DNA of 44,174 nt from Patescibacteria group bacterium (GTDB lineage: Bacteria; Patescibacteriota; Minisyncoccia; RBG-13-40-8-A), in assembly GCA_018829905.1 (NCBI GenBank), contig JAHJST010000025.1:1-44174 (forward strand), read 5' to 3'. Below are positions 25,568 to 44,173 of this stretch, one piece after another. Each line of letters starts with the position of its first letter. The stretch's first letter is position 1. The notes below the pieces were generated by a model. It saw only the letters and a list, made by a program, of their open reading frames with translations, did not search any database and had not been told where the DNA came from. The position numbers and the translations under genes are program-made.

Positions 25568-25606
25568 ATATCATCATTATACCACAAATATATGACTATT
25601 TCAAAC

Positions 25607-25662
25607 CTATTTTTTTAGTTTATAAACCATATATAATGGATAAAACTCATAATAATGATCTT
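25607..25662 (-). pseudogene. 3' relic of the Zn-ribbon/PD-(D/E)XK gene
   Basis: 25613-25662 vs 26883-26932: 44/50 identical; DHYYEFYPLYMVYKLKK* vs DHYYEFYPLHMVYKLKP*. Confidence 0.85.
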
Positions 25663-25668
25663 AAATAT

Positions 25669-26001
25669 TTAAAATCCATTATTTTTAATATAGTCTTCTA
25701 TTTTTTTAATTGCCTTTTCAAAGTCTAAAAGTTCTGGTATTTGTTTTGAAAGACGAATTTTCCAATTCAATTTATATTCTTGTTTTTTAATTGCTGTCAA
25801 AAAATCAAGATCTTCTGAAAATCTATAATCAGGAAAATACATCTTTTTAAGCGCTGTTCCTCCTCTAAATATTAAATCTTTAATGTTTTTATGTTTAGAA
25901 AAATAAAAAAGAAACAATTCAATAAAATAATCTTTTTCAATTGTTTCTACTGGAACTCCTTTTTCTGATGCCTTTTTTACAATTTGAGAATAATTTATCA
26001 T
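25669..26001 (-). pseudogene. AbiEii toxin with a large in-frame internal deletion
   Basis: IEKDY, FRGGTAL, RFSEDLDF run directly into the C-terminal W...L..QI..L.DF segment; only 110 aa. Confidence 0.72.
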
Positions 26002-26810: not shown

Positions 26811-26827
26811 AAATCAATGTTTATTTA

Positions 26828-26880
26828 ATAGTATTAACGCCCATACCGTTAATACTATACAGAAAAAATACATTTGTCAA
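26828..26880 (-). promoter_or_regulatory. abiE promoter with 12-bp inverted-repeat operator
   Basis: TTGACA-17 nt-TAGTAT; ATAGTATTAACG-7 nt-CGTTAATACTAT; the TGA of the -35 is the upstream gene's stop. Confidence 0.78.
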
Positions 26881-27905: not shown

Positions 27906-27906
27906 A

Positions 27907-28911
27907 TTAATTAATTAAAAAATTTATTATTAATTTTATCATTGTATCTTTTTCTTTTGGGTTGCTTTGTGCTATTAATAATGCTAATGCCACCAATGCA
28001 TTGTCATTAAACTTCTTTTCTCCTTTTTTATTGAATAAATAACTATTTTTTGCAAGAAAAACAATAAATAAAAAAGAACCAATGCGCTTATTTCCATCAG
28101 TAAATACATGGTCTTTAATAATAAAATACAATAAATGAGCTGATTTTTCTTCAATACTTGGATATAATTCTTTTTTATCAAAAGTTTGATTTATTGTTCT
28201 CAATATTCCTTGTAAACCATTTTTTGTATCTGTTCCAAATAAATCACTAGCTTGTTTCTTTTTAATTAAATTGTTCTTTAATTCTAGAATGATTTGATTT
28301 GCTTCTTTATAATCTATTGTTTGTTTTATTTTTGTAGTTTTTTCTATTCTTAATTTCCCTTCATCGTATTTATGTAATAAAATCCAAGCATTAGCATAAT
28401 CAGTAATAACTTTTAATAATCCCTTTGCTTCTTTAGTATTAAGTTTTTTTGATTCTATTGTTTTTTTAATTAAAGAAATAGCTTGTTCAAATTCTTTTAA
28501 ACTTGTTTCTTTTAATCTTTTTTGATTTATTGTAAATCCTTTAATTATATGATCTTTTAAGATTTTTGTTGCCCAAATACGGAATTGAGTAGCTCTTTTT
28601 GAATTAACACGATAACCAACTGCAATAATCATATCTAGATTATAAAAATCTATTTTTCTTTCTACGAGTTTCTTTCCTTCTTTTTGAACTATCCGGAATT
28701 TCCGGATAGTTTGTTTTTTCTCAAGCTCATCACTTTTAAAAATATTTTTGATATGCTCATTTATTGTTCTAATATCTTTGCTAAATAATTCAGATATTTG
28801 TTTTTGATTTAACCATATAGTTTCTTTTTCTAATTTAACATATAAAGATATTTTACCTTTTGTTTTGTATATTATTATTTCTCCTTTATTATTTTGATCT
28901 TGTTTTTTCAT
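27907..28911 (-). CDS. RhuM + Fic/Doc domain protein
   Basis: ETIWLNQ.QI.ELF, YNLDMII.VGYRVNS..ATQFRIWAT; HVFTDGNKR. Confidence 0.92.
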   Translation of the reverse strand: MKKQDQNNKGEIIIYKTKGKISLYVKLEKETIWLNQKQISELFSKDIRTINEHIKNIFKSDELEKKQTIRKFRIVQKEGKKLVERKIDFYNLDMIIAVGYRVNSKRATQFRIWATKILKDHIIKGFTINQKRLKETSLKEFEQAISLIKKTIESKKLNTKEAKGLLKVITDYANAWILLHKYDEGKLRIEKTTKIKQTIDYKEANQIILELKNNLIKKKQASDLFGTDTKNGLQGILRTINQTFDKKELYPSIEEKSAHLLYFIIKDHVFTDGNKRIGSFLFIVFLAKNSYLFNKKGEKKFNDNALVALALLIAQSNPKEKDTMIKLIINFLIN

Positions 28912-28923
28912 TATTTTTTAAAT

Positions 28924-29604
28924 TTAAAATTTAGTTTCTTTTACTTTGTCTATATAATAACAAAGGTCTTTACAGTCTTTTCTTGATTTTGGTGGTTGTG
29001 GCTGGTCTAAGATTTCTCTTGCTTTTAGAAGAATTTTTGGGATTTTTTCTAAATCTATTTTTATATCTACAATATATGTTTCAAATCCCAGTTTAAAATT
29101 TTCATCACTATCTAGATCATCATGAGGATGACAATAAATTAAAGATAAATTTCTTATTGGTTTAAATCCATATTTTTCAGCTAAAAATGCATAACAATTT
29201 AATTGTATTTCATATAAAGGAAATAGTTCGTCTTGTCTTTCTGTAAATTTTGCTGTTTTATAATCAATAATATGATATGCATTATCTTTTGTTTTTAAAA
29301 TATCATCTGGTTTTCCAATCAATATCCAATCACCATGCTCTACTGGAAGTTTAAATGTTGTATCATCTTCTACAACTTCTATTGCATCTGGAATTGGTAA
29401 CCATTCTGGTGGTTGGCCCTGATTATTAAAAGAACGATGAGTGCTTCTTTTTGAAACAGAGTCCAATGTACTAAATATTCCTGGAAATATTCCTGGTGCT
29501 TTTCCTATGTGTCTTTCATACCAAAAACATCTTGGACAAAAATCTGGCATGTTTAATTTTCCCAAGTCTTTTGCGCTTATTGATTTTAAATAGTTTTGTT
29601 TCAT
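28924..29604 (-). CDS. Solo RecB/Cas4-like PD-(D/E)XK nuclease
   Basis: CPRCFW, GKPDD, IIDYKT, QLNCYA, C-terminal C...C. Confidence 0.82.
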   Translation of the reverse strand: MKQNYLKSISAKDLGKLNMPDFCPRCFWYERHIGKAPGIFPGIFSTLDSVSKRSTHRSFNNQGQPPEWLPIPDAIEVVEDDTTFKLPVEHGDWILIGKPDDILKTKDNAYHIIDYKTAKFTERQDELFPLYEIQLNCYAFLAEKYGFKPIRNLSLIYCHPHDDLDSDENFKLGFETYIVDIKIDLEKIPKILLKAREILDQPQPPKSRKDCKDLCYYIDKVKETKF

Positions 29605-29668
29605 TTTTTTATAATTTTTCAAAATTATTAATACTGTCAAACTAAAAATTAAAATTTTTATAAATTTT

Positions 29669-29806
29669 CTATGTTCTACAAATTATACAATTAAAACAAT
29701 AATCACAACATTTCTTACCACAATTTTCAATAATCAATCTTTTGAAAAATTTTCTAAACTTTTTCAATTTTTCTAGTTCTTTTTGCATAAATTTGTTTTT
29801 TGTCAT
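29669..29806 (-). CDS. Small Cys-rich ORF (45 aa), possibly truncated
   Basis: MTKNKFMQKELEKLKKFRKFFKRLIIENCGKKCCDYCFNCIICRT*; below the ORF-track size cutoff. Confidence 0.45.
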   Translation of the reverse strand: MTKNKFMQKELEKLKKFRKFFKRLIIENCGKKCCDYCFNCIICRT

Positions 29807-30260
29807 TATAAACTAATTTTTTCTGAGGATTTTTCTTTTCAATTATTTTTTCTATTCTTTTAATAAAATCTTCAGCTGTTTTTATGGCATTTTTTGCTTC
29901 AATTTCAGAAATTATTAAATCTGTGCCATAAATTAAATAATTTCTTTTTTGTTTCATTCTTTTAAATTTTTCTATTAAAATCTTAAATTCTTTTCCTAAA
30001 TAAGATTCACAAAATCTTATTGTAATTATATGAGAACCAACGGTTCTTGGCTTGTATCCTAAAGAAAATATTAAAGCACGACCAGCTAAAATCATTGATT
30101 TGTATGCTTGCTCAAAAGCAGACTCATCAATGTTTTCCTTTAATAAAATTTTTGCTGCTTTGATTGACCTGCAAGACTTAATTAGCACGCTTTCTACTTC
30201 CTTAAGGCTGAATTTCTTTTTTTGTAAACTATTATCATCTAATAATTTTTTCAAATTCAT
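29754..30260 (-). CDS. HEPN-domain protein
   Basis: AYKSM..AGRAL, SH, KRNYLIY; homolog of 19025-19459, sharing PQKKL. Confidence 0.82.
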   Translation of the reverse strand: MNLKKLLDDNSLQKKKFSLKEVESVLIKSCRSIKAAKILLKENIDESAFEQAYKSMILAGRALIFSLGYKPRTVGSHIITIRFCESYLGKEFKILIEKFKRMKQKRNYLIYGTDLIISEIEAKNAIKTAEDFIKRIEKIIEKKNPQKKLVYNDKKQIYAKRTRKIEKV

Positions 30261-30819
30261 TTTGATTTCCAATAATAAATATTTTTGGATTACTTATTAT
30301 GTCTTCTAAAAAAACAGATTCTTTTGATTTTTTTCTAAAATCTTGTTGAGAAAATATAACATAATTTATTTCTCTGCTTAAATATGTTTCAATTAATGAA
30401 ATATTTTTAATTAAAATATTTTCATCTGGATTACCTATTATCATTAAATCAATGTCGCTAAATTGATCTTCTTTTTGTTTTGCAAAAGAACCAAAAATAA
30501 AAGATATTTTAATATTTTTTATTTTTTTTAAACCTTTTTCAATTCTTGCTTCTATTCCTATTGTTTTAGAAACTATTTTTTTTATTTCTTCAAAAAGTGG
30601 TGTTTTTTTATTTAAAAAATAGTAAAGCTGATTTCCTTTTTTCTCTTTTTTAAACAAACCAATTTTTTCCAAAGACAAAAGCTCTCTTCGAATATTTCCC
30701 ACTGAAATTTCTAGTTTTTTTTCTAATTCTCTTAAATAATATTTTTTATCAATATCTGTAAAAAATAATTTAAGGATTTTTTTTCTAGTTTTGGATTTTG
30801 AAATTCTTAAAATATCCAT
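30235..30819 (-). CDS. wHTH + MNT antitoxin
   Basis: YYLRELE...S.GNIRREL..LE..GL; GS-X10-DID; REINYV. Confidence 0.88.
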   Translation of the reverse strand: MDILRISKSKTRKKILKLFFTDIDKKYYLRELEKKLEISVGNIRRELLSLEKIGLFKKEKKGNQLYYFLNKKTPLFEEIKKIVSKTIGIEARIEKGLKKIKNIKISFIFGSFAKQKEDQFSDIDLMIIGNPDENILIKNISLIETYLSREINYVIFSQQDFRKKSKESVFLEDIISNPKIFIIGNQNEFEKIIR

Positions 30820-30823
30820 ATTT

Positions 30824-30874
30824 ATTGTAGTCAATACATACTTCAATTGTAGTCGATTTAAACTACGATGTCAA
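30824..30874 (-). promoter_or_regulatory. MNT-HEPN promoter with GACTACAAT direct repeats
   Basis: TTGACA-17 nt-TACAAT; ATTGTAGTC at 30824 and 30846. Confidence 0.72.
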
Positions 30875-30930
30875 GTTCTTATTTTATATATTTTTGTATG
30901 TTTTTATCTCGCGGGTTTGGATATGTTTTA
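30868..30930. repeat. About 60-bp degenerate direct repeat of 31606-31668
   Basis: atgtcaagtt.ttattt..tatatttttgtat.tttt.a.ctc.cgggtttgg.t.tgtttt present at both sites. Confidence 0.8.
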
Positions 30931-31156
30931 TATATTTAAATTATCTACTATATTTATATTTGTTAATTAATTAAAAAATTTACTATTAACTTTATCATAA
31001 TATCTTTATTAGTATGTTCCACATTGGAACATACTAATTTTTTATATAATTTTTTACTATCTAAAATATTGTTTATATATTTTGTAATCACTGATTTTTT
31101 AATTCTAAAATGATTTTACTATCTGTTTTAAATAATTTTGTTTCATTTTTTTATAA
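30931..31156 (-). pseudogene. Collapsed relic of the nuclease-rhuM-nuclease block
   Basis: 31126-31156 vs 29584-29614: 30/31 identical; IILELK fragment of rhuM; 30931-31007 resembles 27879-27951. Confidence 0.78.
31008..31038. repeat. Perfect 14-bp inverted repeat
   Basis: ATTAGTATGTTCCA-CAT-TGGAACATACTAAT. Confidence 0.8.
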
Positions 31157-31364
31157 AATCTTCTTTGGTTAGTTTTGATTGTCTTAAAATAGATTTAAAT
31201 GTTCCTACTGGTATTTCTTTTGAATGAATAGGGACAACAACTGTTAATGTTTCTTTTTTTGTAATTTTTCTATACTTAACATGACTTCCTTTTTGAGAAA
31301 TAAAAAGAAATCCTCGTTTTTCGAGAATTTTTATTATATAACGAGAAGTAAAAATTTTAGACAT
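31143..31364 (-). CDS. hicA: HicA family toxin
   Basis: IK.LE..GF...SQKGSHVKY, VVPIH.KEIP.GT..SILRQ. Confidence 0.92.
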   Translation of the reverse strand: MSKIFTSRYIIKILEKRGFLFISQKGSHVKYRKITKKETLTVVVPIHSKEIPVGTFKSILRQSKLTKEDFIKK

Positions 31365-31575
31365 ACTTTAATTGATGCGTAGTAATAGTCGGTTGTTCCA
31401 CCTTTATAATCTCTGATTTTGGAATATCTTCTAAATATAATTCTAAGGCTTCTTCTAAATTTTTTAAAGCCTTACTTCTAGTGTCTCCGAAACTAGAAAC
31501 ATCCACATTAAGACATTGAGCAACGTAATATTTACCTTCTTTCCATGTTATATATATAAATTTATTCTTTTTCAT
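31357..31575 (-). CDS. hicB: HicB family antitoxin (short, no DNA-binding domain)
   Basis: EG.YYVAQC....VSSFGDT...AL.NL.EALELYLE. Confidence 0.9.
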   Translation of the reverse strand: MKKNKFIYITWKEGKYYVAQCLNVDVSSFGDTRSKALKNLEEALELYLEDIPKSEIIKVEQPTITTHQLKYV

Positions 31576-31759
31576 ATATTTATATTTTATTATTTAAAAA
31601 ATTAAATGTCAAGTTTTTATTTCGTATATTTTTGTATTTTTTACCTCACGGGTTTGGGTGTGTTTTTTGAGTTTTTTGTTGTTTTTCGTGAGGTGGTTTT
31701 GTTTTTGTTTTTTGGTTGTTTTCGTGAGTTTTTAAGCTGATTTTGTGGTTTTTTGTTTT

Positions 31760-31810
31760 TTATTCAATAATTTCTTCTTGTTGTATGGTTTCTTCTGGTT
31801 GTGTGGTTGA
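31760..31810 (-). pseudogene. 3' relic of an allele of the giant fibre gene
   Basis: PEETIQQEEIIE* vs PEQTPQSEAVIK*: 6/12 identical, same distance to TAA, followed by an A-run in both. Confidence 0.62.
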
Positions 31811-31904
31811 CTATGGTCCTGATAATCCTTTAAACATTAAATTTTAACATAATTAAAAAACAAACAGTAAAATGTTTGTATTTTGAATAATAAATATATT
31901 AAAT

Positions 31905-32201
31905 TTATCTTGATTTAATTCCTAATTTAAATTCTAATTTCCTAACTCTTTTTTTTAAGTCATTTACATCAAATTGAAAGGCTGTATTACCTAGTCTTAA
32001 TTTAATGTCTTCATTGGCCTGTTCTATCCTTTCTAATCTGTTCTCTACCTTATCTAATCTGTCATCTACCTTATCAAATCTTTTATCTACTTTATCAAAT
32101 CTTTTATCCATATTATCAAAACCACCTTTAACCATTTCAGCTGTAGGAAATATTTCTTTTTGGGCTTTTATTAGTTTTTTGATATCTTTATCTGTAAGCA
32201 T
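31905..32201 (-). CDS. Small coiled-coil protein with heptad repeats
   Basis: FDNMDKR-FDKVDKR-FDKVDDR-LDKVENR-LERIE; 21-bp tandem DNA repeats at about 32033-32121; promoter TTGACA-16 nt-TAAAAT 6 nt before the ATG. Confidence 0.75.
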   Translation of the reverse strand: MLTDKDIKKLIKAQKEIFPTAEMVKGGFDNMDKRFDKVDKRFDKVDDRLDKVENRLERIEQANEDIKLRLGNTAFQFDVNDLKKRVRKLEFKLGIKSR

Positions 32202-32262
32202 AGTTTAATTTTATCAAATGTTTATTCTATGTCAAGTTTTTCATTTTTATCCATAAAAAAAC

Positions 32263-32357
32263 TTGACAAGGGGTTTTTTATAATATAGAATTATAATATC
32301 ACGATGAGAGGGCACGCCTAAGGTTTCGTCCGAAGGTTACTCCCTCTCTTTTGTTTT
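32263..32357 (+). ncRNA. Putative small RNA 1 (promoter plus about 60-nt hairpin) convergent with NYN1
   Basis: TTGACA-17 nt-TAGAAT; GAGAGGG(32306)...CCCTCTC(32348) followed by TTTTGTTTT. Confidence 0.55.
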
Positions 32358-32849
32358 GCCCAATTTATGGTTTAAATCATCTATATAAATAAAATATTTA
32401 CGAAACTTTCTTAATAATGCAGAATATTTTCTACGATTAGGAATTATTATACGGAAGAGTTTTCTTTGTTTTTCTAAATATTCTATTAAACAATGAAAAT
32501 CTCCATCACCAGAGACAATAATTGCTTTATCATAATTAGGATATTCAATCATTGTATGTAATACTAATTCTGCATCAACATTTCCTTTTATAAAATTTTC
32601 TTCTTTCTTTTTGTATTCAAGGGTTGGTTTGAAAATAACAATATAACCAGTTTTTTGTAAAAAAGTATACAATGCCTCATTGCCTGGAACATAACCAATA
32701 AAAAGAAAGCTCTTTGTAACCTTATACTTGTCTTTAATATAAATATAGAATTTAGCAAAATCTAATTCCCAGCCACGATCTTTAATTGCTAAATTAAGAT
32801 TCTGACTATCTACAAAAGCATAATTATTTTCTTTTATTTTTTGACTCAT
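32337..32849 (-). CDS. NYN (LabA/DUF88, PIN-like) domain nuclease
   Basis: AFVDSQNL, KGNVDAELV, VSGDGDF: intact acidic active-site set. Confidence 0.93.
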   Translation of the reverse strand: MSQKIKENNYAFVDSQNLNLAIKDRGWELDFAKFYIYIKDKYKVTKSFLFIGYVPGNEALYTFLQKTGYIVIFKPTLEYKKKEENFIKGNVDAELVLHTMIEYPNYDKAIIVSGDGDFHCLIEYLEKQRKLFRIIIPNRRKYSALLRKFRKYFIYIDDLNHKLGKTKERE

Positions 32850-32913
32850 ATTATATAGCTTATTTTGATAATAAGTTGTTTTTTTTATTCATAAAAAAAA
32901 CTGTAAAAAAAAC

Positions 32914-32994
32914 TTGACAAGAGGTTTTTTATAAATTATACTGAATAATGTGATAGCACTCTGGGGTGTCCTTTGGACAGCCCCAGATTTTTTT
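32914..32994 (+). ncRNA. Putative small RNA 2 (promoter plus about 45-nt hairpin) convergent with NYN2
   Basis: TTGACA-17 nt-TATACT; TCTGGGG-TGTCC-TTT-GGACA-G-CCCCAGA followed by T7. Confidence 0.55.
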
Positions 32995-33429
32995 ATTGAG
33001 AAATTTCGTTTTTTAATTTGTGTAGATCAATATATTTAGCTCTTTCTAATAATTCTTTAGAAATACGCCCTCTTGTGGACATAACAATAATCCATTTACT
33101 TTTCTTTTTAATTCTATTTCGAAAGCTAATTCCATATCAAGATTTCCTTTGAGCTTATCGCGATAACTAGATATTTTTATTTTTTTAATAGCTTTGGTTC
33201 TTAAAATATATCCATTAATGTCTAGCATATCTAAAAATTTCTGTTCATTTTGCTTGTTTTCGTCATAAGCAGCGTAAATAAAACATTTTACATCCTTGCC
33301 ACATTCTTTTTTAAAATATTTCATTAATTTTTCATAAGAAATCTTCCAACCCAAAGTCCTTTGAGCATAAAAAGTATTAGCTGCGTCTATAAAAACATAT
33401 ACTTTGCCTTTAATAAATTTCTTAATCAT
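32993..33429 (-). pseudogene. NYN domain gene with internal deletion and frameshift
   Basis: VFIDAAN and KGNLDMEL present, SGD.DF missing; C-terminus KWIIVMSTRGRISKELLERAKYIDLHKLKNEISQ* continues in another frame to 32993. Confidence 0.82.
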
Positions 33430-33460: not shown

Positions 33461-36400
33461 TTATTTAATAACTGCTTCTGATTGTGGTGTTTGTTCTGGT
33501 TCAATGACTGGTTTTTCAATTGGCTGTGGTTCTTCTATTGTTGGTTGTTCAACAACTGGCTTTAATAATTCATCAATTACGGGGATAGATTCCTCTGGAG
33601 CAATGTCGGCAGAACCATCTTTATCTGGGGTTGGTTCTTCAACAACTGGTTCTAGTACTGGGGTTGGGGTTGGTGTTGGTGTTGGTGTTGGTTCAATAAT
33701 TTCGGGTTCTAAAGGAGGGGTTTCTTCCTCTATTATACATGTGGAATCACAGCCGTCTCCGTCTATTTTATTGCCGTCATCACATGATTCTCCTGGTTGT
33801 ACAACACTATCTCCGCAAAAAGCTTCGACAACTCCGGCATTGTTATTATCGGATGCAATATCGGCATCTGATGCAATGTCGGCAGGAGAATCTTCCTCAT
33901 CTACTAATAAAATCCAGTAATCAAATTCTAGGGGTTCTGGGGTTACGTCGCTTAAGCGGATTGTAAATCCAGCTCCTTGTGCTTTTTCTGATATGTAGTA
34001 AGTTCTGCCTCCTGTGTCTGAGGTAAATGTAATGAATATTTTTGAATTTGTTTCAACTAGTTTATTCTTTACTCTGTATTCTATTTGTTGGGCTGGGAAT
34101 ATGTCTGAACCAACAATAGAATCTTTGTCTTTTTGTTTTTTAACTCTAAATTGTTCTACTGCTAGTTTAGTAATATTTGTTATTCCGTCTTTTATTGTTA
34201 TTCCTAGATTCTTTAAAGTGTTAATAATTTGGCTTACTATGTTTGTATCTAATGATGGAGGAAGAATAGAATGTTTAATTGTTATATTATCCTCTTTGCT
34301 TATTGATGTTCCATTCTCTTTTATTTTTATTAACTCTTTTTCATTTATACATGTTTTTCCTATACATAGTTTATTACCTATGTGTAAATCTTTGGATATT
34401 GATGCTGTGCCTGCGACTGTTAGTTTGTAGGTTGGGTTAGTTGTTCCTATGCCGACGTTATTTGAAGCGTTATCTACAAATAACGTACCACTATCTACAT
34501 TAAAATCACCTGCGACGGTAAGACCTCCTGCAAAGCTGGAACTTGCTGTTCCTGATACGGTTAAAACACCTGTTAATGCTGATGATGAGGCAAGAATTCC
34601 GCCTGCAACTTCTAACTTATATAGGGGTGAAACATTTCCGATGCCGACGTTGCCTGTGGAGTTGATTGTTATTGATTCAATATTTTGTGGTGCATTAATT
34701 ATATTCATTATTGAAAACATTTCGCTAAATGTTTGGGCCCATAGACCATGTAATTTTTCATATTCTATTGCTTTTTGATTATCAAATAATTCAGTAGTTT
34801 CTGTATGAACCGCTTCTGGTAGTATTGCTTCAACTTCCTGAGCAATCATACCTATCTGTGTTTCTTGGTTTTTATCTGGATCTGTCCAATTAAATGTTAC
34901 CCCTCTTAATTGAGATGCTTTTTCTAATGCACTTGTAACTGTTGTTATATTTGTTTTTAAACGTTCATCAGAAGATGAATGATATGCGCCAAAAACTCCA
35001 CCAACATATCCATCATCTTCAATCCAAAACACATCGCTTCCTGCGTGCTGAACATGCACAAAACTGTCCGCATCATTATTATCACTGTCCATATTTATGT
35101 ATAAATCATCTTTTGCATAATAATATCCATAAGTAGAATACCCTTGATAAGTAGTTGCAGTTATTGTTCCAGAAGCATTAAAAGCAGTTCTATCTATCGT
35201 TGCTTCTAAGAGCGCGTCTGCCAATGTTCCTATTGAAAAGAAGGATGTTGCACTGTCTCCTGTTAAGGCAGATCCTGCTTCAGCATCACCAGCAGCATAA
35301 TTACCAGTAGTATCTGTGCCCAAAGCAACTGAATTAGCAGCAATTGTTGTTGTAATTGCTGTTGTTCCTGAACCAGTAACATCTCCTGATAATGTAATTG
35401 TTTGATTTCCTGTAAGATATGAAGAATCATTGGTCCACATAGATATATTTCCTGTAGCTCCTGTTAATGCTCCTCCAGTAAGTATGGCTGTGCCATCTGT
35501 TAAGGTTCCTCCTCTAATTATGTCTGTAGCTGTTAATGAATCAGATATTGATGCACGTACAAAATCAAACTTAATACCTCCTGTAATATTACCTGATAAT
35601 TTAATATTACCTACAACATCTAATTTTTCTGCTGGCCCCGTCGTCCCGATGCCGACGTTGCCGCTCGTTCCATAAATCCCCATTCGCACCGTTCTTGCAC
35701 TACCATTCCAATTAGACAATTCTACATTCGTAACATTGGAGGAAGGATTAGAAAATCTCATTCCACCCCACGAAGAGGCAGGTGAACCTACACGAAAATC
35801 AGTTGCGGAGTGAGAAGTGTCATTTGAACCCATAGAAAATTTGAAAATAACATCATCATCAGTTGTCCCAGTACCCGCAACCTCAAGTTTTCCAGTCGGG
35901 TTCGTCGTCCCGATGCCGACGTTGCCTCTTTGTGTTCCGCCCCCAATAGTCATTGCGATACTTGAACCGCCCACATTTCCCGTAACAAAATTGATATTGC
36001 CGTAAGTGCCGCCACTGGCCGCATAATTATTTACGATATTCGTGTCGACATAATTACTGCCGAAACGAAATGGCCCCGCCCCGCCATTATTCTGCTCAAA
36101 CTCCGAAGTATATACCGCTGCTGTGGCTCGTATTATTCCGCTGCCACCTCCGTTGACTGGGACGGTTTGAAAGTTGCCCAGAACCAAATTCGTGCCCGTG
36201 GTTTCAGCCTTAAAGACGTTTAGCAAAGCCCCTGGACTCGTTGTCCCGATGCCGACGTTGCCTGATGTTGTTAATGTTCCCACTGTTAACCCAGCGTCGC
36301 CACTATCATCAGCCAGTCTAACCGCTAAAGTTGTTGCGCTCTTTTTTAATGCAGGAAAAGAAGAAGTCGTGCCACCAAATTTAAGCATTGAAAAATCAGT

Positions 36401-39400
36401 TTGTGCATCGTTATACAGCTGTATTACTCCATCAGTAGCACTATCTATTCTAAATCTATTACTTTTTTGCAATACTCCCCCAAAGGCCACGTCACTAGTA
36501 AAATAACCTGTTCCGACAACATATAAAGCTTTTGTCGGCCCTGTTGTCCCGATGCCTATATTTCCTTGAACATATAAATGAGATGAGATTGATGCTATTC
36601 CATCAAAACTAACACTTCCTGAGCTTACAATTGAACTTCTAAAGATGGCTGTTCCATTTACGTCTAATAAAGCAGCAGGAACGGTTGTCCCGATGCCGAC
36701 GTTGCCTTGAATTGCTAATCCGTCCGTTGGTCCTGCAGAAGCCGCATATCCTGAACCAATGACAGCATTTCCACTGACGGCTAACTTTGACCCAGGCGAA
36801 GCTGTCCCGATGCCGACGTTGTCGCTTATATATGCCGTCCCTAAAACATCAAGAGTGTTAGTTGGGTCGGTAGTGGCATTATCCGCTATAGTAATACCTG
36901 AAGCTCCGATAAGCATCTTTGTTTTTGAGGTTGAAACATTATATATAGCAAAACCACCATTAGCCGCTGCTGGTTTTCCTGCGACTAATTGCCAACTTTG
37001 ACCATTAGCCCCAGTATTAACTATCCCAATTCGTGAAGTTGATTGGTCTCCTGATGATACAGTTAATAATGACCCTGGCGCCGTCGTCCCGATGCCGACG
37101 TTGCCTCCTGATAATATAGTCATACGACTTGTTCCAGTAACAGTCGTATTATTGGCTGCTGTAAAAAATTGTATATTGGTAGCTGCATTCATTATAGAAG
37201 ACCCTCCACCAATTTGCACATAATTATCGCTTGTATCTGACACGGCATACATTAAACTAATTGGTTCTTCTGCGTTTGTATAATGATACATACCCAAACG
37301 ACCATATTTATCTGTGGTGTTTGTTCTTGTATTAGCTGCTGAATCAGCACCTAATACAATAGATAATCCACCATTTGCAACATCAAGTTTTCCAGTCGGA
37401 TTCGTCGTCCCGATGCCGACGTTGCCGCTTGGTTGTATTCTCATCCTTTCCACACCAGTATTTGAGGTAACTGGATTTGTAACAAATCGTATAGCACTTC
37501 CGCCATTACTACCATCTGTGTCCCCTATTACTGAAATATCTAATATACGAGTATAAGGTGCACCAGCAATTGTGTAAGAATCTAATGTGGTCTTAGCTGG
37601 ACTATTCCAAGTTTTAAGAGATACCCCTGTTCCAGAAATACCGAATGATAACTGACCAACTGGCGCCGTCGTCCCGATGCCGACGTTGCCTTGTATTGTA
37701 AATTGTCCTGATACGCTCGCTGTGCCATCAACGGCTAATTTAGCAGTCGGAAGGAGAGTCCCGATGCCGACGTTGCCGTTCATTACTGCTAACCCTGCTG
37801 TCCCTGGAGTAGCTGTTCCTATTCCAACATTTCCTCCACTTGTGATAGTCATTGCTAAAGAATTATTATTACCAAATTTCATATCAGTATTTTCAAAATT
37901 CCAAAATAAAGGTTGTTCTACTGAATTTAGTCCTATCCTAAGTCCATCTGAGGTAGTTTGCCCGGTCCCATCATTTGTAAAATATTGATAAGTAGTTGCC
38001 CCTGTTGCACCATTATGTAACCATAACGGAATTGCATTTACATTACTTGTTCCAACATCTACCTGAAGTTTAGATAATGAAGGATTAGTCGTCCCGATGC
38101 CGACGTTGCCTGATTTATCTATTGTCACTGCCGTAGTCAATGTCCCGCCAGTGTTAGCAGTTCGTAAGTAAAGTTTGCCACCCACATCCACGGAGGTATC
38201 CTGAAGTCCGCCAGCAATAGCCGCTGGTGTATAACGAGTAGTGCCGCTACTATAATGATTTTCAAAAACTAATTGTGACTGTATGTTAGTTGGAGCCCAC
38301 GCATTAGTAATACCAGAACTAATTACAGCAAGGGTATTAAACCCTGTATTGTCGTTTACATTTTTAAGAACATCAAATAATACTGTAGGACTAGTCGTCC
38401 CGATGCCGACGTTGCCGGCACTTGTTATTCTGACCTGTTCCGTTTGCGCCCCACCATTTGTGTTGGTGGTAAATGTTATCTTTGATGGAGGACGATTCCC
38501 TGATGTAGGTACCCCATCAACCGAAAGTAATATGCCCGCGGTAGCAAAAAAACCTGTGCCTCCATGTGCATTTCCTTGAAGTAGAAGGATTTGATCTCCA
38601 TCAGAAACAATAGAAGGAGAAGCATGTGTCCCACCCGATCTTACCCCATATATTACAGACCTTGCCCCTGCTCCAGATATAGCTAGACTACTTTCTACCG
38701 CATCTTTGGCTAAATGTAATTGATACCCCGGCCCCGTCGTCCCGATGCCGACGTTGCCGTTCATTACTGCCAGACCCGCTGTCCCTGGATTAGCAGTACC
38801 AATTCCAATATTTCCACTTCCAAATATTGTTATTGCATTGACAGGGGTTCCAGCCGTTTTTGTGCGGAAATACCAGTTACTAACGTCAGTGTTAAACGGG
38901 AAATCCACATATACTTGACCAGTTGTAGCGTTTACCCACGTATCTAGCCCGGAATCAGTACCACTTCTAAAGATTTTGAAATGCGGATTTCCACTCGATG
39001 GCTCTATGTGAAGATTAGCCGTCGGCCCCGTCGTCCCGATGCCGACGTTGCCTTGATTTTGTATATACAAGACCTCGCTGATACTGGCTGTGCCTGCTAC
39101 TTCCAATGTTGCCCCTATATCGGTTGTCCCGATGCCGACGTTGCCGCTACTTCTTTGAATCCTCATAGCCTCATAATATGAACCACCGTAATATCTATCT
39201 ATTGCTAAATCAGAATCTGGAGTGACAGAGTGTCTAAATCCCCAATAAGGACTAGTAGCATAATTAAACCTTAGAATTGGAGTTGTTCCTGGGGTATCTG
39301 ACCTATTAACGGTTGATAGGTTTAATAACGCTCCTGGGTCGCTGGTGCCTATACCTACCATTGAGTTTGATGCTACAACAAAGGTTGTGTCCATTATTCT

Positions 39401-42400
39401 GGTTTCTGCACTTATAGATGCTGTCCCATCAACGCTTAACTTATATCCAGGGCTGGTGTCTCCGATGCCGACGTTGCCTTGATTTGTTATTCTCATTTTC
39501 TCGGAAATATTAACTGCATCACGATATGTGGTGAAAAATGCTAATCCCGTAGTACCACCAAATGTATCATTTTCATCTACTGCGGTAATTTTTGCTCTAA
39601 CTCCAGCTACACCTGACGTCCAGGCACTAACATCATTTGAATAAAATTGTAATTGTCCTATTGTTTCTCCATCAGCCACAACAGTATTACTAGATTCAAG
39701 TCGTAAGATATTATTAGCGGAAGTACTTTTTATATTAAGAAGTGCCCCCGGCCCCGTCGTCCCGATGCCGACGTTGCCCGTTATATCATTCATATTTATA
39801 GTACCTACTCCAGAAATTATAGACAATGTATTGGCAGTATTTCCATAATTTATCTGCCCTTTTATTGTTCCTGCTGATTTAAATAAAATTCCCGGCACTC
39901 CACTTGTTGTTGTATCTAAAGTAATATATCCATAACCTGCGTCCCCTTTAAATTTTGCTACTCCAATACCGCTTACATGAGTTCCCAAAACATCTAATGT
40001 CGCCCCCGGCGTTGTCGTCCCGATGCCCACATAATTAGCACCCGCATCTACATAAAGGGTGCCGCTGTCTATGTTCATTCCTGATGCTACGGTTAGTTCG
40101 TCCCATAGGGTTAAAGCTCCTGAGATAGATGCTGTGCCATCAACGCTTAGTTTAGCAGTCGGAAGGATAGTCCCGATGCCGACGTTGCCGGTTCCTTTTA
40201 TAGTCATCACAACGTCACTGGTTGTCTTGTAAGCAGAATTGAAAAGCGAATGAAAATTAAAATTGGTCGAAGTACCATCAAACACCATTCCAATACCTCC
40301 GACGGGCGTACCATTTGCTCCAACTTCATTTCGCCATATAATACCCTTTGTCCCCGTTCCCAACCCGCCAATATTATGTAACGTAAGTATTTCTGCGTCA
40401 GTAGTAGTACCAATGTTAGTTTGGATGTGTAATTTCCCCTGAGGTCCCGTCGTCCCGATGCCGACGTTGCCGCCAGTGAAATAAGAATTACCGGACCCTG
40501 CCGATTGTACAGGTCCGGGTCTGAACTTTTCGTAGCCGGTTCCTGGATTATCTCTAACCGCTATCGCTCCGTCACTTTCAATAGCTAGTTGTGAAGCAAC
40601 CACTCCTCCCCAGTGAAAGCTGAGCCGCGGCGGTAGATAGGCACTTGTACCACCAAATTGGGCTTCACGTAATTGTATTGGAGCTGTAGCATAATTAGTA
40701 GCTACATTATCACTTTGAGCCAGGATAGAGCTGCCGAGTGCTTTTATATTACCATTTACATCCAACTTCGCCCCTGGAGACACAGTCCCGATGCCGACGT
40801 TGCCTTGATTTTGTATATACAAGACCTCGCTGATACTGGCTGTGCCTGCTACTTCCAATGTTGCCCCTATATCGGTTGTCCCGATGCCGACGTTGCCGTT
40901 CTGGTCCATCAACATACCAGTATTCAATGTGCCACCTGAATTATATGTTTGTAGCTGTAACTTACCTCCTTGTCCAACAACTGGATTAAAATAAGCCGAA
41001 ATTAATGCATGATTATAGTAACCATTAAAAGTAAGTGATTCTCCTTGGGTATAATCTTGTGCGCTTGGATTACTCAAAGTAACAAGATTTGCAATACCAA
41101 AAAAACCCTTATTGACTGTTAGAGGTGCCCCCGGCCCCGTTGTCCCGATGCCGACGTTGCCTGAGCTTACTATCACATTGTTTCTCGGGTTTAAAATTAT
41201 ATTATCAGTTCCAGCTTGGTGAAAATCTATAAGGAGACGACTTGTCCCATCCGAATCCTTAAAATTATATCCTGTATATGACCCTTGATTTCCTTGAAAT
41301 TCAAGTATTCCATTACTACTATTTCTACCTATTTTGTAGTAAATCCCACCACCCATACCTATTCTTAATTGATCGCTTGAAGTTGTTCCTACAATGTCCA
41401 GAGCACTTCCCGGTGCCGTCGTCCCGATGCCGACGTTGCCTTGTATTGTAAATTGTCCTGATACGCTGGCGGTGCCATCAACGCTTAGTTTAGCAGTCGG
41501 AAGGAGAGTCCCGATGCCGACGTTGCCAGTGCTTGCAATACTCATTAATTCGAGTCCAGTACCACTTAAAATAGATAATCTTTCAGAATCTTCGCCATCT
41601 TGATAATTAGACCTGATAGTAAATCTCTTGTCTGTCTCATTTCCTGAAGTAATATCAAAAGAAGCAGTAGCAGTAGAGGCAATACTTAATAAAGCAGTAG
41701 GCCCCGTCGTCCCGATGCCGACGTTGCCGAGTACATTGAAACCATATTCACCAGCACCAATATTCTCCAAAGTTAATGACGTATCTGTATACCCTGTATT
41801 TGTTAGTATTCTAAATTTCCTAGCTGCAGTAGCATCAATCAATAGTGGGTAAGTAGAATTTTGAGGGTCTTTGAGTGCCAATATATCATCACCATTAGAA
41901 GCAGCAGCCACTTCCAACTTCGCCCCTGGACTCGTTGTGCCGATGCCGACGTTGCCTTGTATTATAGTTTGTCCTGAGATACTTGCAGTGCCATCAACGC
42001 TTAGTTTAGCAGTCGGAAGGAGAGTCCCGATGCCGACGTTGCCGCTGTCTAAAAAGGTTACAAGTTCCGCTCCACCAGTGGTTGTTGTTCTATTATGACC
42101 AAAATGATAGCCGGCCCCCGTTTGATTGTTATCCGAATCAATATTAAAAAACATTTCATCCGCAGTATTGATAGTTGCATTGATAGATCCCGCCGTACCC
42201 AATGTCAAAACCGGAGAAAAATTAGCGGTACCTAAGAATGTTCCCTCACCGGCAACTACAAGTTTTGTCCCCGGACTCGTTGTCCCGATGCCGACGTTGC
42301 CGCTTCCTTCTAAATGCAACACCGGGCTTGAACTCCAAGTTCCTGCAGAAGTAAGTAAATAATAATCAAGTTTTCCAGAAGAAACACCAGCTGAATATTT

Positions 42401-44173
42401 TGTTCCCTGTAAATAAGCTGTGTTTAAACCATCAACATCAAAAAGTATAATCTTCTGTCCTGTGGTTGAATCTAATCTCATCGCTCCAACCGCAGAACCA
42501 CCTGTGTCTATATCTAATTTAGCCCCCGGTCCCGTCGTCCCGATGCCGACGTTGCCGGTTGATTGCTCAAGAACCATTACATTCTTTGCGTTTTGCTCGT
42601 CAAAAAAGTACAAATGCGTTGCATCATTCGCACGCTGTCCAATACTCCATCTCCATCCACTCGCACCTGTATTGAAATACAAATTAGCATCGCTTGTTGA
42701 GACAGAACGTGTAATTCCAATTCCACTTGAATTCTTCGCTACTTCAAGAGCCAACACTGGATTCGTCGTCCCGATGCCGACGTTGCCGCTTCCTAAAATT
42801 GTGACCAAATCCGTTGTGTAATTCTGAATTTTAAGAACAGTTTCAGTGGCGGCGAGTGCCATAATTGATGTTCCTGCTACATCCTTTTTTGCGCCTACAA
42901 TGCCAACTGCCTGCAATGTTGCTGTTGGAGAATTACTTCCAATTATTCCGAATAAATCCAATCCTTGAGCATTAGCGTCAGATGCTCCATATAATCTGTA
43001 TCCTCCAGCAGTTGAAGATATAATGGTATGGTAAGCAAAAGTAGTATCATTAGACGCACCGAACCATCCTGATAAGCCATTACTTACATCTGCGTCGGAG
43101 AGAATAAAATTTCCATCACGAACATCTAATTTTCCAGTCGGCGCCGTCGTCCCGATGCCGACGTTGCCTGTTTCTGTTATTCTAACCTTTTCACCATTAT
43201 CGGAACCATAAAAAGCAGACATACCATCATCTCTTACAATAAATCTTGTAGCCCCAGCAGAATTTGCTGCTTCAAGTGAATATGTAGCCGAGGTTGTTCC
43301 TGCACCTCTTATAGACAACCTACCATTTCCAACTCCCGCTGTTCCGACTCTAAGGTCACCGGTTATTATCCCAATACCTACAACATGAAGAGGTGAGCTT
43401 GGCACCGTCGTCCCGATGCCGACGTTGCCTTGACTATCTATTCTCATTTTCTCGGTTAAATTAGTAGCACTTCCTCCAAGGTTAGTATAGAAAACCATAT
43501 CCTGCCTATAATTAATACCTTGTCCAACAGATATAGTGCCTATTTTCCCAGCCTGCCAATTCTCCCCAGTATACCCTGCCATAAAACCAATCGCTGGACC
43601 GGAAACGACGTCCCCAGCAGCCGGTCCCGCTTGTAGATTTAATACCGTGTTTAAACCAGACGCTGTAGAACCTTTAATATGCAAATTATAGAGTGGCCCC
43701 GTCGTCCCGATGCCGACGTTGCCTTGATTTTGTATATACAAGACCTCGCTGATACTGGCTGTGCCTGCTACTTCCAATGTTGCCCCTATATCGGTTGTCC
43801 CGATGCCGACGTTGCCAGAAGTATTGATTGTCATAGCCAATACTCCATTAGCGCCTAATTGTAATTTGGAACCAATTCCACTAGATAAAATAGCTAAATC
43901 GGTAGACAACCCTCCACTAAATTCTTGATCAGCATTTGCAATTCTACCAATTATTGTCCCCCCGACAGACAATGCTATTTCCGCACGAGTTGCATGATTA
44001 ACGGTCAATAACTCGCCCGGTGCCGTCGTCCCGATGCCGACGTTGCCGCTTGTTTGTTCAATGACTACCTTTGGTGTAGCCGCACCTGCAAAAAACTCTG
44101 CACGACCGCTGTCTTTTAAAACAAACAAATTCAAAGTATTGGCTTCGTTATTAAACCTATATCCTGCCGCCGC
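33461..44173 (-). CDS. Giant GNVGIGT-repeat fibre/adhesin with peptidase S74 chaperone domain (5' partial, >3570 aa)
   Basis: Frame open to the window edge; about 40 GNVGIGT-like motifs; SDERLK..RGVTFNW..GMIAQEVE; Cys-rich repeat; Pro/Glu tail. Confidence 0.88.
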   Translation of the reverse strand, partial: AAAGYRFNNEANTLNLFVLKDSGRAEFFAGAATPKVVIEQTSGNVGIGTTAPGELLTVNHATRAEIALSVGGTIIGRIANADQEFSGGLSTDLAILSSGIGSKLQLGANGVLAMTINTSGNVGIGTTDIGATLEVAGTASISEVLYIQNQGNVGIGTTGPLYNLHIKGSTASGLNTVLNLQAGPAAGDVVSGPAIGFMAGYTGENWQAGKIGTISVGQGINYRQDMVFYTNLGGSATNLTEKMRIDSQGNVGIGTTVPSSPLHVVGIGIITGDLRVGTAGVGNGRLSIRGAGTTSATYSLEAANSAGATRFIVRDDGMSAFYGSDNGEKVRITETGNVGIGTTAPTGKLDVRDGNFILSDADVSNGLSGWFGASNDTTFAYHTIISSTAGGYRLYGASDANAQGLDLFGIIGSNSPTATLQAVGIVGAKKDVAGTSIMALAATETVLKIQNYTTDLVTILGSGNVGIGTTNPVLALEVAKNSSGIGITRSVSTSDANLYFNTGASGWRWSIGQRANDATHLYFFDEQNAKNVMVLEQSTGNVGIGTTGPGAKLDIDTGGSAVGAMRLDSTTGQKIILFDVDGLNTAYLQGTKYSAGVSSGKLDYYLLTSAGTWSSSPVLHLEGSGNVGIGTTSPGTKLVVAGEGTFLGTANFSPVLTLGTAGSINATINTADEMFFNIDSDNNQTGAGYHFGHNRTTTTGGAELVTFLDSGNVGIGTLLPTAKLSVDGTASISGQTIIQGNVGIGTTSPGAKLEVAAASNGDDILALKDPQNSTYPLLIDATAARKFRILTNTGYTDTSLTLENIGAGEYGFNVLGNVGIGTTGPTALLSIASTATASFDITSGNETDKRFTIRSNYQDGEDSERLSILSGTGLELMSIASTGNVGIGTLLPTAKLSVDGTASVSGQFTIQGNVGIGTTAPGSALDIVGTTSSDQLRIGMGGGIYYKIGRNSSNGILEFQGNQGSYTGYNFKDSDGTSRLLIDFHQAGTDNIILNPRNNVIVSSGNVGIGTTGPGAPLTVNKGFFGIANLVTLSNPSAQDYTQGESLTFNGYYNHALISAYFNPVVGQGGKLQLQTYNSGGTLNTGMLMDQNGNVGIGTTDIGATLEVAGTASISEVLYIQNQGNVGIGTVSPGAKLDVNGNIKALGSSILAQSDNVATNYATAPIQLREAQFGGTSAYLPPRLSFHWGGVVASQLAIESDGAIAVRDNPGTGYEKFRPGPVQSAGSGNSYFTGGNVGIGTTGPQGKLHIQTNIGTTTDAEILTLHNIGGLGTGTKGIIWRNEVGANGTPVGGIGMVFDGTSTNFNFHSLFNSAYKTTSDVVMTIKGTGNVGIGTILPTAKLSVDGTASISGALTLWDELTVASGMNIDSGTLYVDAGANYVGIGTTTPGATLDVLGTHVSGIGVAKFKGDAGYGYITLDTTTSGVPGILFKSAGTIKGQINYGNTANTLSIISGVGTINMNDITGNVGIGTTGPGALLNIKSTSANNILRLESSNTVVADGETIGQLQFYSNDVSAWTSGVAGVRAKITAVDENDTFGGTTGLAFFTTYRDAVNISEKMRITNQGNVGIGDTSPGYKLSVDGTASISAETRIMDTTFVVASNSMVGIGTSDPGALLNLSTVNRSDTPGTTPILRFNYATSPYWGFRHSVTPDSDLAIDRYYGGSYYEAMRIQRSSGNVGIGTTDIGATLEVAGTASISEVLYIQNQGNVGIGTTGPTANLHIEPSSGNPHFKIFRSGTDSGLDTWVNATTGQVYVDFPFNTDVSNWYFRTKTAGTPVNAITIFGSGNIGIGTANPGTAGLAVMNGNVGIGTTGPGYQLHLAKDAVESSLAISGAGARSVIYGVRSGGTHASPSIVSDGDQILLLQGNAHGGTGFFATAGILLSVDGVPTSGNRPPSKITFTTNTNGGAQTEQVRITSAGNVGIGTTSPTVLFDVLKNVNDNTGFNTLAVISSGITNAWAPTNIQSQLVFENHYSSGTTRYTPAAIAGGLQDTSVDVGGKLYLRTANTGGTLTTAVTIDKSGNVGIGTTNPSLSKLQVDVGTSNVNAIPLWLHNGATGATTYQYFTNDGTGQTTSDGLRIGLNSVEQPLFWNFENTDMKFGNNNSLAMTITSGGNVGIGTATPGTAGLAVMNGNVGIGTLLPTAKLAVDGTASVSGQFTIQGNVGIGTTAPVGQLSFGISGTGVSLKTWNSPAKTTLDSYTIAGAPYTRILDISVIGDTDGSNGGSAIRFVTNPVTSNTGVERMRIQPSGNVGIGTTNPTGKLDVANGGLSIVLGADSAANTRTNTTDKYGRLGMYHYTNAEEPISLMYAVSDTSDNYVQIGGGSSIMNAATNIQFFTAANNTTVTGTSRMTILSGGNVGIGTTAPGSLLTVSSGDQSTSRIGIVNTGANGQSWQLVAGKPAAANGGFAIYNVSTSKTKMLIGASGITIADNATTDPTNTLDVLGTAYISDNVGIGTASPGSKLAVSGNAVIGSGYAASAGPTDGLAIQGNVGIGTTVPAALLDVNGTAIFRSSIVSSGSVSFDGIASISSHLYVQGNIGIGTTGPTKALYVVGTGYFTSDVAFGGVLQKSNRFRIDSATDGVIQLYNDAQTDFSMLKFGGTTSSFPALKKSATTLAVRLADDSGDAGLTVGTLTTSGNVGIGTTSPGALLNVFKAETTGTNLVLGNFQTVPVNGGGSGIIRATAAVYTSEFEQNNGGAGPFRFGSNYVDTNIVNNYAASGGTYGNINFVTGNVGGSSIAMTIGGGTQRGNVGIGTTNPTGKLEVAGTGTTDDDVIFKFSMGSNDTSHSATDFRVGSPASSWGGMRFSNPSSNVTNVELSNWNGSARTVRMGIYGTSGNVGIGTTGPAEKLDVVGNIKLSGNITGGIKFDFVRASISDSLTATDIIRGGTLTDGTAILTGGALTGATGNISMWTNDSSYLTGNQTITLSGDVTGSGTTAITTTIAANSVALGTDTTGNYAAGDAEAGSALTGDSATSFFSIGTLADALLEATIDRTAFNASGTITATTYQGYSTYGYYYAKDDLYINMDSDNNDADSFVHVQHAGSDVFWIEDDGYVGGVFGAYHSSSDERLKTNITTVTSALEKASQLRGVTFNWTDPDKNQETQIGMIAQEVEAILPEAVHTETTELFDNQKAIEYEKLHGLWAQTFSEMFSIMNIINAPQNIESITINSTGNVGIGNVSPLYKLEVAGGILASSSALTGVLTVSGTASSSFAGGLTVAGDFNVDSGTLFVDNASNNVGIGTTNPTYKLTVAGTASISKDLHIGNKLCIGKTCINEKELIKIKENGTSISKEDNITIKHSILPPSLDTNIVSQIINTLKNLGITIKDGITNITKLAVEQFRVKKQKDKDSIVGSDIFPAQQIEYRVKNKLVETNSKIFITFTSDTGGRTYYISEKAQGAGFTIRLSDVTPEPLEFDYWILLVDEEDSPADIASDADIASDNNNAGVVEAFCGDSVVQPGESCDDGNKIDGDGCDSTCIIEEETPPLEPEIIEPTPTPTPTPTPVLEPVVEEPTPDKDGSADIAPEESIPVIDELLKPVVEQPTIEEPQPIEKPVIEPEQTPQSEAVIK
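35643..44047 (-). repeat. Dispersed in-frame 20-bp repeat GGCAACGTCGGCATCGGGAC
   Basis: 31 perfect copies counted by eye, plus about 7 variants extending to about 34443; all in the same codon phase. Confidence 0.95.

Follow-up and report, generated by a model that had tools for sequence, protein, structure and literature searches.

A giant open reading frame (ORF), predicted to encode a tail-fibre-like modular surface fibre, lies at one end of a 44,174-nucleotide contig from a Patescibacteria group bacterium (JAHJST010000025.1, assembly GCA_018829905.1), and within it a 20-nt sequence, GGC AAC GTC GGC ATC GGG AC, is repeated 31 times without a single substitution. The contig, referred to throughout as the window, is the whole of contig C23 in a 641-kb genome (27 contigs, 96% complete, 28.3% GC); labels beginning with C denote contigs of this genome, while L denotes individual loci and G the genomes with which it was compared. 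The repeated sequence, termed the 'word', is read on the minus strand, and the stretch that each word opens is termed a module. Word identity is held at the level of the DNA; neither selection on the protein nor genome codon use accounts for it. The explanation favoured here, with moderate confidence, is that the motif DNA evolves in concert through motif-mediated recombination of modules, although how this recombination proceeds, how often, and what advantage it brings in attachment to hosts are inferred. The gene, the array and the copies that depart from the word are as follows.

33461 to 44173, minus strand: giant ORF, 3570 amino acids as seen, its 5' end cut by the contig end.
35643 to 44047, minus strand: array of 31 exact in-frame words, at spacings of 87-633 bp, all multiples of three.
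34635 to 34654, minus strand: word variant with two mismatches (GNVGIGN), beyond the S74 domain.
36804 to 36823, minus strand: word variant with one mismatch (DNVGIGT).
39459 to 39478, minus strand: word variant with three mismatches (GNVGIGD).
41937 to 41956, minus strand: word variant with one synonymous mismatch (GGG to GGC).
37814 to 37834, minus strand: AT-spelled GNVGIGT at amino acid 2112 (GGA AAT GTT GGA ATA GGA ACA).
38795 to 38815, minus strand: AT-spelled GNIGIGT at amino acid 1785, in a paralogous mini-module with 86% DNA identity to the one at 37814.

The 31 copies are found at exactly the starts given by an earlier sequence-only reading of this DNA, as plus-strand positions of a minus-strand word, while none occurs in 100 dinucleotide-preserving shuffles. 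Each encodes GNVGIGT in frame 0 of the one ORF, and all of them, together with four near copies, lie on the minus strand, that is, as direct repeats. A search by peptide pattern identifies 40 motif-like heptads, of which 31 are exact, four are within three mismatches and five are more distant; the variants hence number nine rather than the seven or so first reported, and the periods of about 80-380 bp given at that time understate the observed spacings. The 'spacer' stretches between words are 67-613 bp of coding sequence, and the array may extend further, the ORF running off the contig end. On the 5' side the conserved DNA starts sharply at the first G of the word, whereas on the 3' side GC-ending codons run on for about five codons (often ACG ACG ... 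CCN) before dropping to background. The word is found nowhere else in its own genome, even at two mismatches, but it heads arrays in contigs from other sources.

The wobble positions of all 31 exact copies read C/C/C/C/C/G, and the contrast with the host preference for A or T, already remarked upon in the sequence-only reading, is confirmed by the G+C content of third codon positions (GC3): across 8632 codons from 25 other window ORFs it is 0.124, and across 3291 codons of the fibre gene outside the motif it is 0.255. The chance of the word spelling arising at any one motif is approximately 7e-6 from the codon use of the gene itself and 1.5e-7 from genome-wide use, while only three synonymous changes are present among 35 GC-spelled copies (210 wobble sites). 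All of the word codons are the rarest or second rarest of their family in this genome (GTC 3%, ATC 5%, GGG 6%, GGC 11% and AAC 14%, with the ACG that follows at 3.5%). Two copies written in ordinary AT-rich codons, previously placed near 37815 and 38797, are real, the former lying inside a 19-amino acid mini-module 57 bp upstream of an exact word. The idea that the word consists of preferred codons was rejected: the EF-Tu gene avoids GTC, GGG and ACG, which are therefore not preferred.

The approximately 40 modules that make up the fibre have little in common beyond the motif. Only 18 of 741 pairs of module bodies reach BLASTP E < 1e-3, nearly all of them involving short connector modules, and the other 723 are without detectable protein similarity, in agreement with the earlier view that most modules are mutually unrelated. 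Against this background, a small connector cassette recurs unchanged at three places, and one module body stands out in its composition.

43704 to 43816, minus strand: 113-bp cassette, copy 1, in which two words enclose 73 bp; the other two copies match it at 100% identity.
40785 to 40897, minus strand: 113-bp cassette, copy 2.
39033 to 39145, minus strand: 113-bp cassette, copy 3.
35939 to 36241, minus strand: body of module 36, GC3 0.48, the highest in the gene.

The identity between the three cassettes ends at the outer edges of both words, and the flanks beyond are unrelated. More generally, the gene contains eight internal repeats that are 60 nt or longer, and in four of these every one of the four ends lies no more than 12 nt from a word edge; a second family of connector modules exhibits patchwork similarity. 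Word-bounded duplications are also present in other arrays, as a dispersed 277-bp repeat at L043, where 21 of 24 motifs are exact, and as a repeat of 216-234 bp in four copies on a viral contig (L183, 17 of 19 exact). When related loci are compared in 11 pairs, homology has 52 internal ends, 10 of which fall within 30 nt of a motif, compared with 4.9% for random positions; these ends count both members of each pair, such that independent events are about half as many.

Module composition is directly seen to be heterogeneous, GC3 ranging from 0.145 to 0.48 (chi2 87.5, df 27, p 3e-8), while other genes, cut into pieces of the same size, are homogeneous (p 0.15). For module 36, at the upper extreme, two unrelated 2241-amino acid proteins each contain one module that matches it, at 66% and 64% identity, whereas its neighbours match these same proteins at only 29-52% and at non-adjacent places. 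By comparison of the protein sequences, module 36 is a motif-bounded, non-colinear mosaic with foreign proteins, and it resembles a recent import. Junctions between shared and unshared sequence thus lie in or at the word in the fibre gene, in two other arrays, in related loci and, at the protein level, in module 36. As a separate observation, the module bodies as a whole have a GC3 of about 0.24, relative to about 0.12 for the genome, and vary strongly from one to the next; import, biased conversion and selection are candidate causes.

Recent transfer of whole modules was looked for and rejected, a blastn comparison of the gene with 240 word-bearing and 116 unbiased viral loci returning only matches of 30-109 nt at the motif. 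When 27 trimmed bodies were compared with 475 loci by tblastn, weak matches (30-57% identity) were obtained for 11 bodies only, and word-bearing loci were not clearly favoured (45 locus hits against 57, or 15 against 7 once the S74-bearing module is set aside).

These features would follow from the architecture of the gene. The fibre can be regarded as about 40 modules strung together, structurally independent of one another and each opening with the joint motif GNVGIGT(T)xP. This motif is the sole stretch common to all modules, and homology-dependent events would therefore pair modules only there. Such events might comprise unequal exchange, gene conversion over short tracts, template switching during replication or the uptake of foreign fibre DNA, and each would duplicate, delete, move or import a whole module in frame while also overwriting a portion of the motif DNA with that of its partner. 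Through this overwriting the motif DNA would evolve in concert, and so remain identical while the bodies diverge. Cassette shuffling would then be a consequence of architecture and general recombination, for which RecA (encoded on C12) and a RecO N-terminal domain (within the window) are present, and a dedicated system of enzyme and site would not be needed.

Several observations weigh against concerted evolution by these means, or at least against its sufficiency. The 20 bp of the word do not exceed, and may fall short of, the length of homology that RecA-dependent exchange is usually said to require. Unbiased conversion explains the homogeneity of the words, but not the survival of a GC-ending spelling under the AT pressure of a 28% GC genome; biased conversion, better annealing of a GC-rich 20-mer and repeated import from a GC-richer pool are candidates for keeping it. 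Homogenised arrays with AT spellings also exist (L307 and L318), and a general GC-biased conversion is therefore not evident. Two related giant genes, in G401 (11 motif-like sites) and G423 (10), spell every site differently with no homogenisation, and the process is therefore not general to the fibre family. No rearranged allele is seen in the Logan contigs of four sequencing runs, which stop at words, and for the order of blocks lying between the three identical cassettes a single short-read assembly is the only source. Finally, intragenic processes alone do not explain the recurrence of the same spelling in unrelated contigs: the exact word is the single commonest spelling in a sample of metagenome contigs (14 of 174 motifs), and in viral and metagenome contigs pooled it is seen 15 times against 0.25 expected from the codon use of each ORF, an excess of approximately 60-fold.

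These figures derive from samples drawn independently of codon choice by degenerate back-translation, covering 118 viral-contig and 119 metagenome-contig loci, with each of 367 motifs, in ORFs of at least 150 codons, scored against the codon use of its own ORF. The viral contigs contain 207 motifs in 150 spellings, two of them exact, and the metagenome contigs 131 spellings, the exact word being found at 10 loci. If only ORFs with a GC3 below 0.4 are considered, the count of the exact word is 10, with 0.008 expected, and the excess extends to single positions, with GGC at the first glycine seen 173 times against 83 expected, GTC 112 against 53, and GGG at the sixth residue, also glycine, 95 against 39. 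Spellings are closer within than between loci (2.0 against 3.9 wobble differences, with 13% against 0.2% of pairs identical). Beyond the sampled contigs, 130 of 401 genomes of the phylum carry the motif, with many spellings among the matches listed. The exact word itself heads other arrays, at 21/24 (L043), 17/19 (L183), 9/12 (G429), 8/12 (L030) and 8/10 (L039) motifs, the conserved block being 31 nt in G429 compared with 20 nt in the fibre gene. A genome scan for the exact word matched at least 80 records, and among the matches listed 35 titles name lineages of the Candidate Phyla Radiation (CPR) and 10 name archaea, although bin labels can err and single matches in GC-rich genomes are expected from codon use alone.

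The sequence-only reading had held that wobbles tracking local codon use in other genomes would tell against it. Most motifs elsewhere do behave in this manner, as in the viral contigs, but the exact spelling does not; a universal site is therefore refuted, while a DNA-level process is not. A diverged pair of genes, in G130 and G290 (45% amino acid identity over 1411 aligned columns), is consistent with this, wobbles at the conserved G/N/V/I residues of the motif differing at 13 of 27 sites and those outside at 137 of 214, which suggests that any wobble constraint in the motif is mild at most. Together, the varied spellings elsewhere, this pair and the genes of G401 and G423 rule out a universally constrained recognition site.

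One explanation of the recurrence, offered tentatively and on balance improbable, is that carriers of the exact spelling share a 'linker dialect', in which the word would be maintained as a DNA-level standard, in spite of local codon bias, in the fibre genes of CPR bacteria, DPANN archaea, other groundwater microbes and their phages. If so, modules would recombine in frame between any carriers, forming a community-wide recombining adhesin pool, and other spellings would mark separate compatibility groups. A second spelling, with wobble letters G-T-G-G-T-G, is itself over-represented in the unbiased samples (L249-L498), at four seen against 0.06 expected, and close variants of it recur within single genes of G015, G019 and G190. 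This suggests the existence of several such dialects, G-T-G-G-T-G being one that might define a compatibility group. A full-text search for the peptide string and its sub-strings found no publication mentioning the motif.

Alternatively, the array may reflect nothing but recent descent, the words or the entire array having come from a GC-richer donor with too little time for decay and no ongoing homogenisation. The elevated GC3 of the gene relative to the genome (0.255 against 0.124, and 0.113 in its probable N-terminal part on C18), the GC3 of 0.35-0.51 in the fibre genes of relatives, the nine of 12 exact words in G429 at a GC3 of 0.49, and the resemblance of module 36 to a recent import are all in keeping with such an origin. 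Yet the bodies are mutually unalignable and have a GC3 of about 0.24, while the words have accumulated only three synonymous changes in 210 wobbles, and mutation would not spare the words; furthermore, the identical dispersed cassettes show that events have taken place inside the gene. Recent descent without homogenisation is accordingly regarded as an unlikely account.

Selection on the spelling for a function of the nucleic acid other than recombination, whether a ribosome pause at rare codons or a small hairpin (CGUCG/CGACG) in mRNA or single-stranded DNA, is a little less credible again. The rarity of the word codons would suit a pause, and cognate Watson-Crick tRNAs are found for five of the six codons and for the next ACG (Gly GCC and CCC, Val GAC, Ile GAU and Thr CGU), tRNA-Asn not being found among the 37 tRNAs of this incomplete assembly. 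However, selection for rare codons would not fix GGC at glycines 1 and 4 yet GGG at glycine 6, the codons avoided by EF-Tu are not preferred ones, and arrays of the same word sit in genes with a GC3 of 0.35-0.5, in which its codons are not rare. A recurrent hairpin is predicted in five of six folded copies (z from 0.1 to -2.95 over the six), but the complementarity of the two pairing wobble pairs is no stronger than that between non-pairing wobbles, and the 3' arm ACGACG is present in only 18 of 31 copies. Selection for a hairpin was rejected on this basis, the covariation not being specific to the pairing positions.

Programmed cassette shuffling, in which a site-specific or guided recombinase, with its gene at another place, would recognise the word and excise, insert or exchange modules, comes closest to the original proposal but is judged very unlikely. 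The sharp 5' edge of the conserved block, the invariance of the 31 copies, the presence of the word at the head of arrays in several other contigs and its over-representation relative to local codon use speak for such a system, and the genome encodes one tyrosine recombinase (C14) and one serine recombinase (C16). The latter, at C16:31201-31638, is the sole serine recombinase match of the genome and carries an in-frame TAG. Conversely, with all copies in direct orientation a simple site-specific recombinase would only delete. A Pfam scan of the 30 window ORFs detected no tyrosine or serine recombinase, in accordance with the earlier statement that none is visible there, and none was found among 10 neighbouring ORFs scanned at three other word-bearing loci. 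The variable length of the conserved block, the other spellings of most motifs elsewhere and the wobble differences between G130 and G290 also argue against a fixed site. The notion of the word as a DNA-level exchange site is hence upheld with respect to the identity of the DNA and the junctions at the word, but not as a dedicated system, and the sequence-only interpretation overall is partly supported.

An artefact, whereby assembly or read error correction homogenised the repeats or stitched different genes together at the word, is extremely improbable: although the contig ends inside the array, short-read graphs branch at words, where Logan contigs stop, and the block order between cassettes comes from a single assembly, one-mismatch variants persist in the contig, Logan contigs from runs of four groundwater studies match module pieces with their flanking words at zero differences (35898-36262, for example), and comparable arrays are present in a complete 651-kb genome and in records whose contig names point to several different assemblers. 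Because of these independent Logan matches, the word array is not peculiar to one assembly. Joints in the Logan contigs (15 listed, with 739 more) were not used as evidence, the listed ones having sides of 22-30 letters and depths far above that of the organism, and stretches that the Logan contigs leave uncovered carry no meaning.

The product of the giant ORF is, on the basis of its domain content, a tail-fibre-like modular surface fibre of the S74-chaperone type. It matches the tail-fibre families phrog_9942 (E 4e-119, in 14 stretches) and phrog_18345 (E 1e-82) of PHROG, and the sole solved structures matched by sequence are the MAT fibres of Bdellovibrio (8OND, 8OML, 8OJN and 8ON4; E 2e-7 to 4e-4), the best being 8OND and 8OML (E 2-3e-7). 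Two domains can be assigned near the C-terminus.

34805 to 34972, minus strand: Peptidase_S74 intramolecular chaperone (PF13884, E 9e-19, 68 bits against a cut-off of 22), amino acids 3068-3123.
33725 to 33823, minus strand: cysteine-rich acidic repeat in the tail beyond S74 (TIGR02232, E 1.2e-9; DUF4215 below cut-off).

The SDxxxK motif of S74 is present in the translation as S-D-E-R-L-K, and the fibre is, by homology, probably trimeric and displayed at the surface. S74 chaperone domains are usually C-terminal; here about 450 amino acids follow (33461-34804, minus strand), comprising two more motif-like sites, the cysteine-rich acidic repeat (TIGR02232) and a proline-rich tail. A 904-amino acid ORF on the minus strand of another contig (C18:1-2712; L374), truncated where that contig begins and with a GC3 of 0.113, opens with two repeats resembling helix-turn-helix (HTH) domains and a hydrophobic helix, followed by fibre-like segments. 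It is probably the missing N-terminus, in which case the total would exceed 4470 amino acids, with the two contigs ending without overlap; several related giant proteins bear HTH_17 (PF12728). The fibre belongs to a very large family: three of its modules are matched by at least 1685 proteins, 1963-6248 amino acids in length, but at 28-39% identity only. No close ortholog is present in the collections searched, the best relative among 40 kin genomes being 55% identical over 197 amino acids and the best database protein 53% identical over 14% of the query, at its C-terminal end.

The gene is chromosomal, its surroundings including four aminoacyl-tRNA synthetases, IF-3, SmpB and the RecO N-terminal domain among the 30 ORFs scanned with Pfam. 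Directly downstream of it is an island of toxin-antitoxin and defence-type genes (19025-19997 and 24594-33429, minus strand) with two NYN-domain proteins, two pairs of HEPN and nucleotidyltransferase proteins, two PD-(D/E)XK nucleases, a RhuM-Fic protein and AbiEii. An 844-amino acid ORF at 20722-23256 (minus strand) contains an intein splicing domain and a LAGLIDADG homing-endonuclease domain.

In parts of the account by Caulton et al. (2024, PMC10769870), the MAT fibres of Bdellovibrio bacteriovorus, which lives on other bacteria, are described as trimeric, surface-displayed, phage-like adhesins; they are defined by a beta-rich, conserved domain about 130 amino acids long, directly after the signal peptide, and the S74 subgroup has a C-terminal S74 chaperone with SDxxxK and a stalk with a recurring V-G-...-P-...-L loop motif. 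The present fibre shares with these the character of a chromosomal tail-fibre-like surface fibre from a bacterium living on other bacteria, S74 with SDxxxK, the V-G-...-P-...-L stalk motif and direct sequence matches. Whereas the MATs are 21 separate proteins, those with residue ranges given in the portions considered being about 1000 amino acids or less (PMC10769870), the fibre is one gene of at least 3570 amino acids with about 40 modules and a probable N-terminus of HTH repeats plus a transmembrane helix. The same portions of that account do not mention DNA-level repeats or recombination between motifs (PMC10769870).

An analogy in terms of mechanism is provided by the adhesins of T-even phages, in which conserved glycine-rich motifs (gp38) or His boxes (gp37) act as exchange points (Trojet et al. 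2011, PMC3157838, citing Tetart et al. 1996, 1998); in the passages drawn upon here, chimeric adhesins from crosses are reported with exchanges within or near the conserved motifs (PMC3157838). As in gp38, glycine-rich motifs of the fibre flank hypervariable segments of a putative receptor-binding protein, with exchange junctions in or near the motifs, although for the fibre these junctions are deduced by sequence comparison. The differences are of scale and context: gp38 adhesins, of a 260-amino acid class, have five motifs, as given in those passages, compared with at least 31 identical words in a gene of more than 10 kb, and they are encoded by phages rather than on a cellular chromosome. 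Synonymous invariance against codon bias is not reported in the passages concerned (PMC3157838). The principle thus has its precedent in T-even phages, and the word array would be a variation on known motif-mediated exchange.

The array also invites comparison with shufflons, with which it shares short conserved DNA sites within the coding region of an adhesin or tail fibre that would allow alternative segments to be joined in frame. In shufflons (R64 Rci/sfx) and in the tail-fibre inversion systems of Mu (Gin), P1 (Cin) and p15B (Min) the sites are inverted, a dedicated recombinase is adjacent and C-terminal ends are switched, whereas here all sites are direct, the modules are internal and the 30 window ORFs scanned include no adjacent recombinase. 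The suggested resemblance to a repeat-spacer array holds as a formal likeness only, the repeats, unlike those of a CRISPR-like array, being translated in one frame as GNVGIGT, and the spacers being non-uniform coding sequence of 67-613 bp.

Diversity-generating retroelements (DGRs) diversify surface and binding proteins of CPR bacteria, and one is present in this genome at C4:1-2011 (L499), continuing on C16:1-440 (L500), with its reverse transcriptase split across the two contig ends. It has a 135-nt pair of template and variable repeats with 84% identity, in which about 15 of 18 differences lie at template adenines, and a 120-amino acid ORF beside the reverse transcriptase is a putative Avd by position only. 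Further reverse transcriptase fragments are found at the ends of C18 and C13. A link between the DGR and the fibre array was rejected, the DGR on C4 having its own pair of repeats; the array, unlike a DGR target, lacks a template repeat or adenine-specific pattern, and its word and modules have no second genomic copy. In G429 a 23S_rRNA_IVP (Avd-like) gene lies directly downstream of the word array (L377, G429:C1, 3465-3809), with neither a reverse transcriptase nor a template repeat detected alongside.

Genes of this kind break short-read assemblies at their words, which is a practical warning for the recovery of such arrays. The unexplained excess of the exact spelling would represent an unusual conservation of synonymous sites across lineages of very different base composition, and the array offers a concrete, testable substrate, in that native words can be set against synonymously recoded ones. 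Giant surface proteins are prime candidates for the means by which ultra-small episymbionts recognise their hosts and switch between them. If the motif DNA does evolve in concert through recombination at the motif, every homology-driven event would yield an intact, in-frame and re-assorted fibre, and this would constitute a simple route to adhesin diversity without dedicated machinery.

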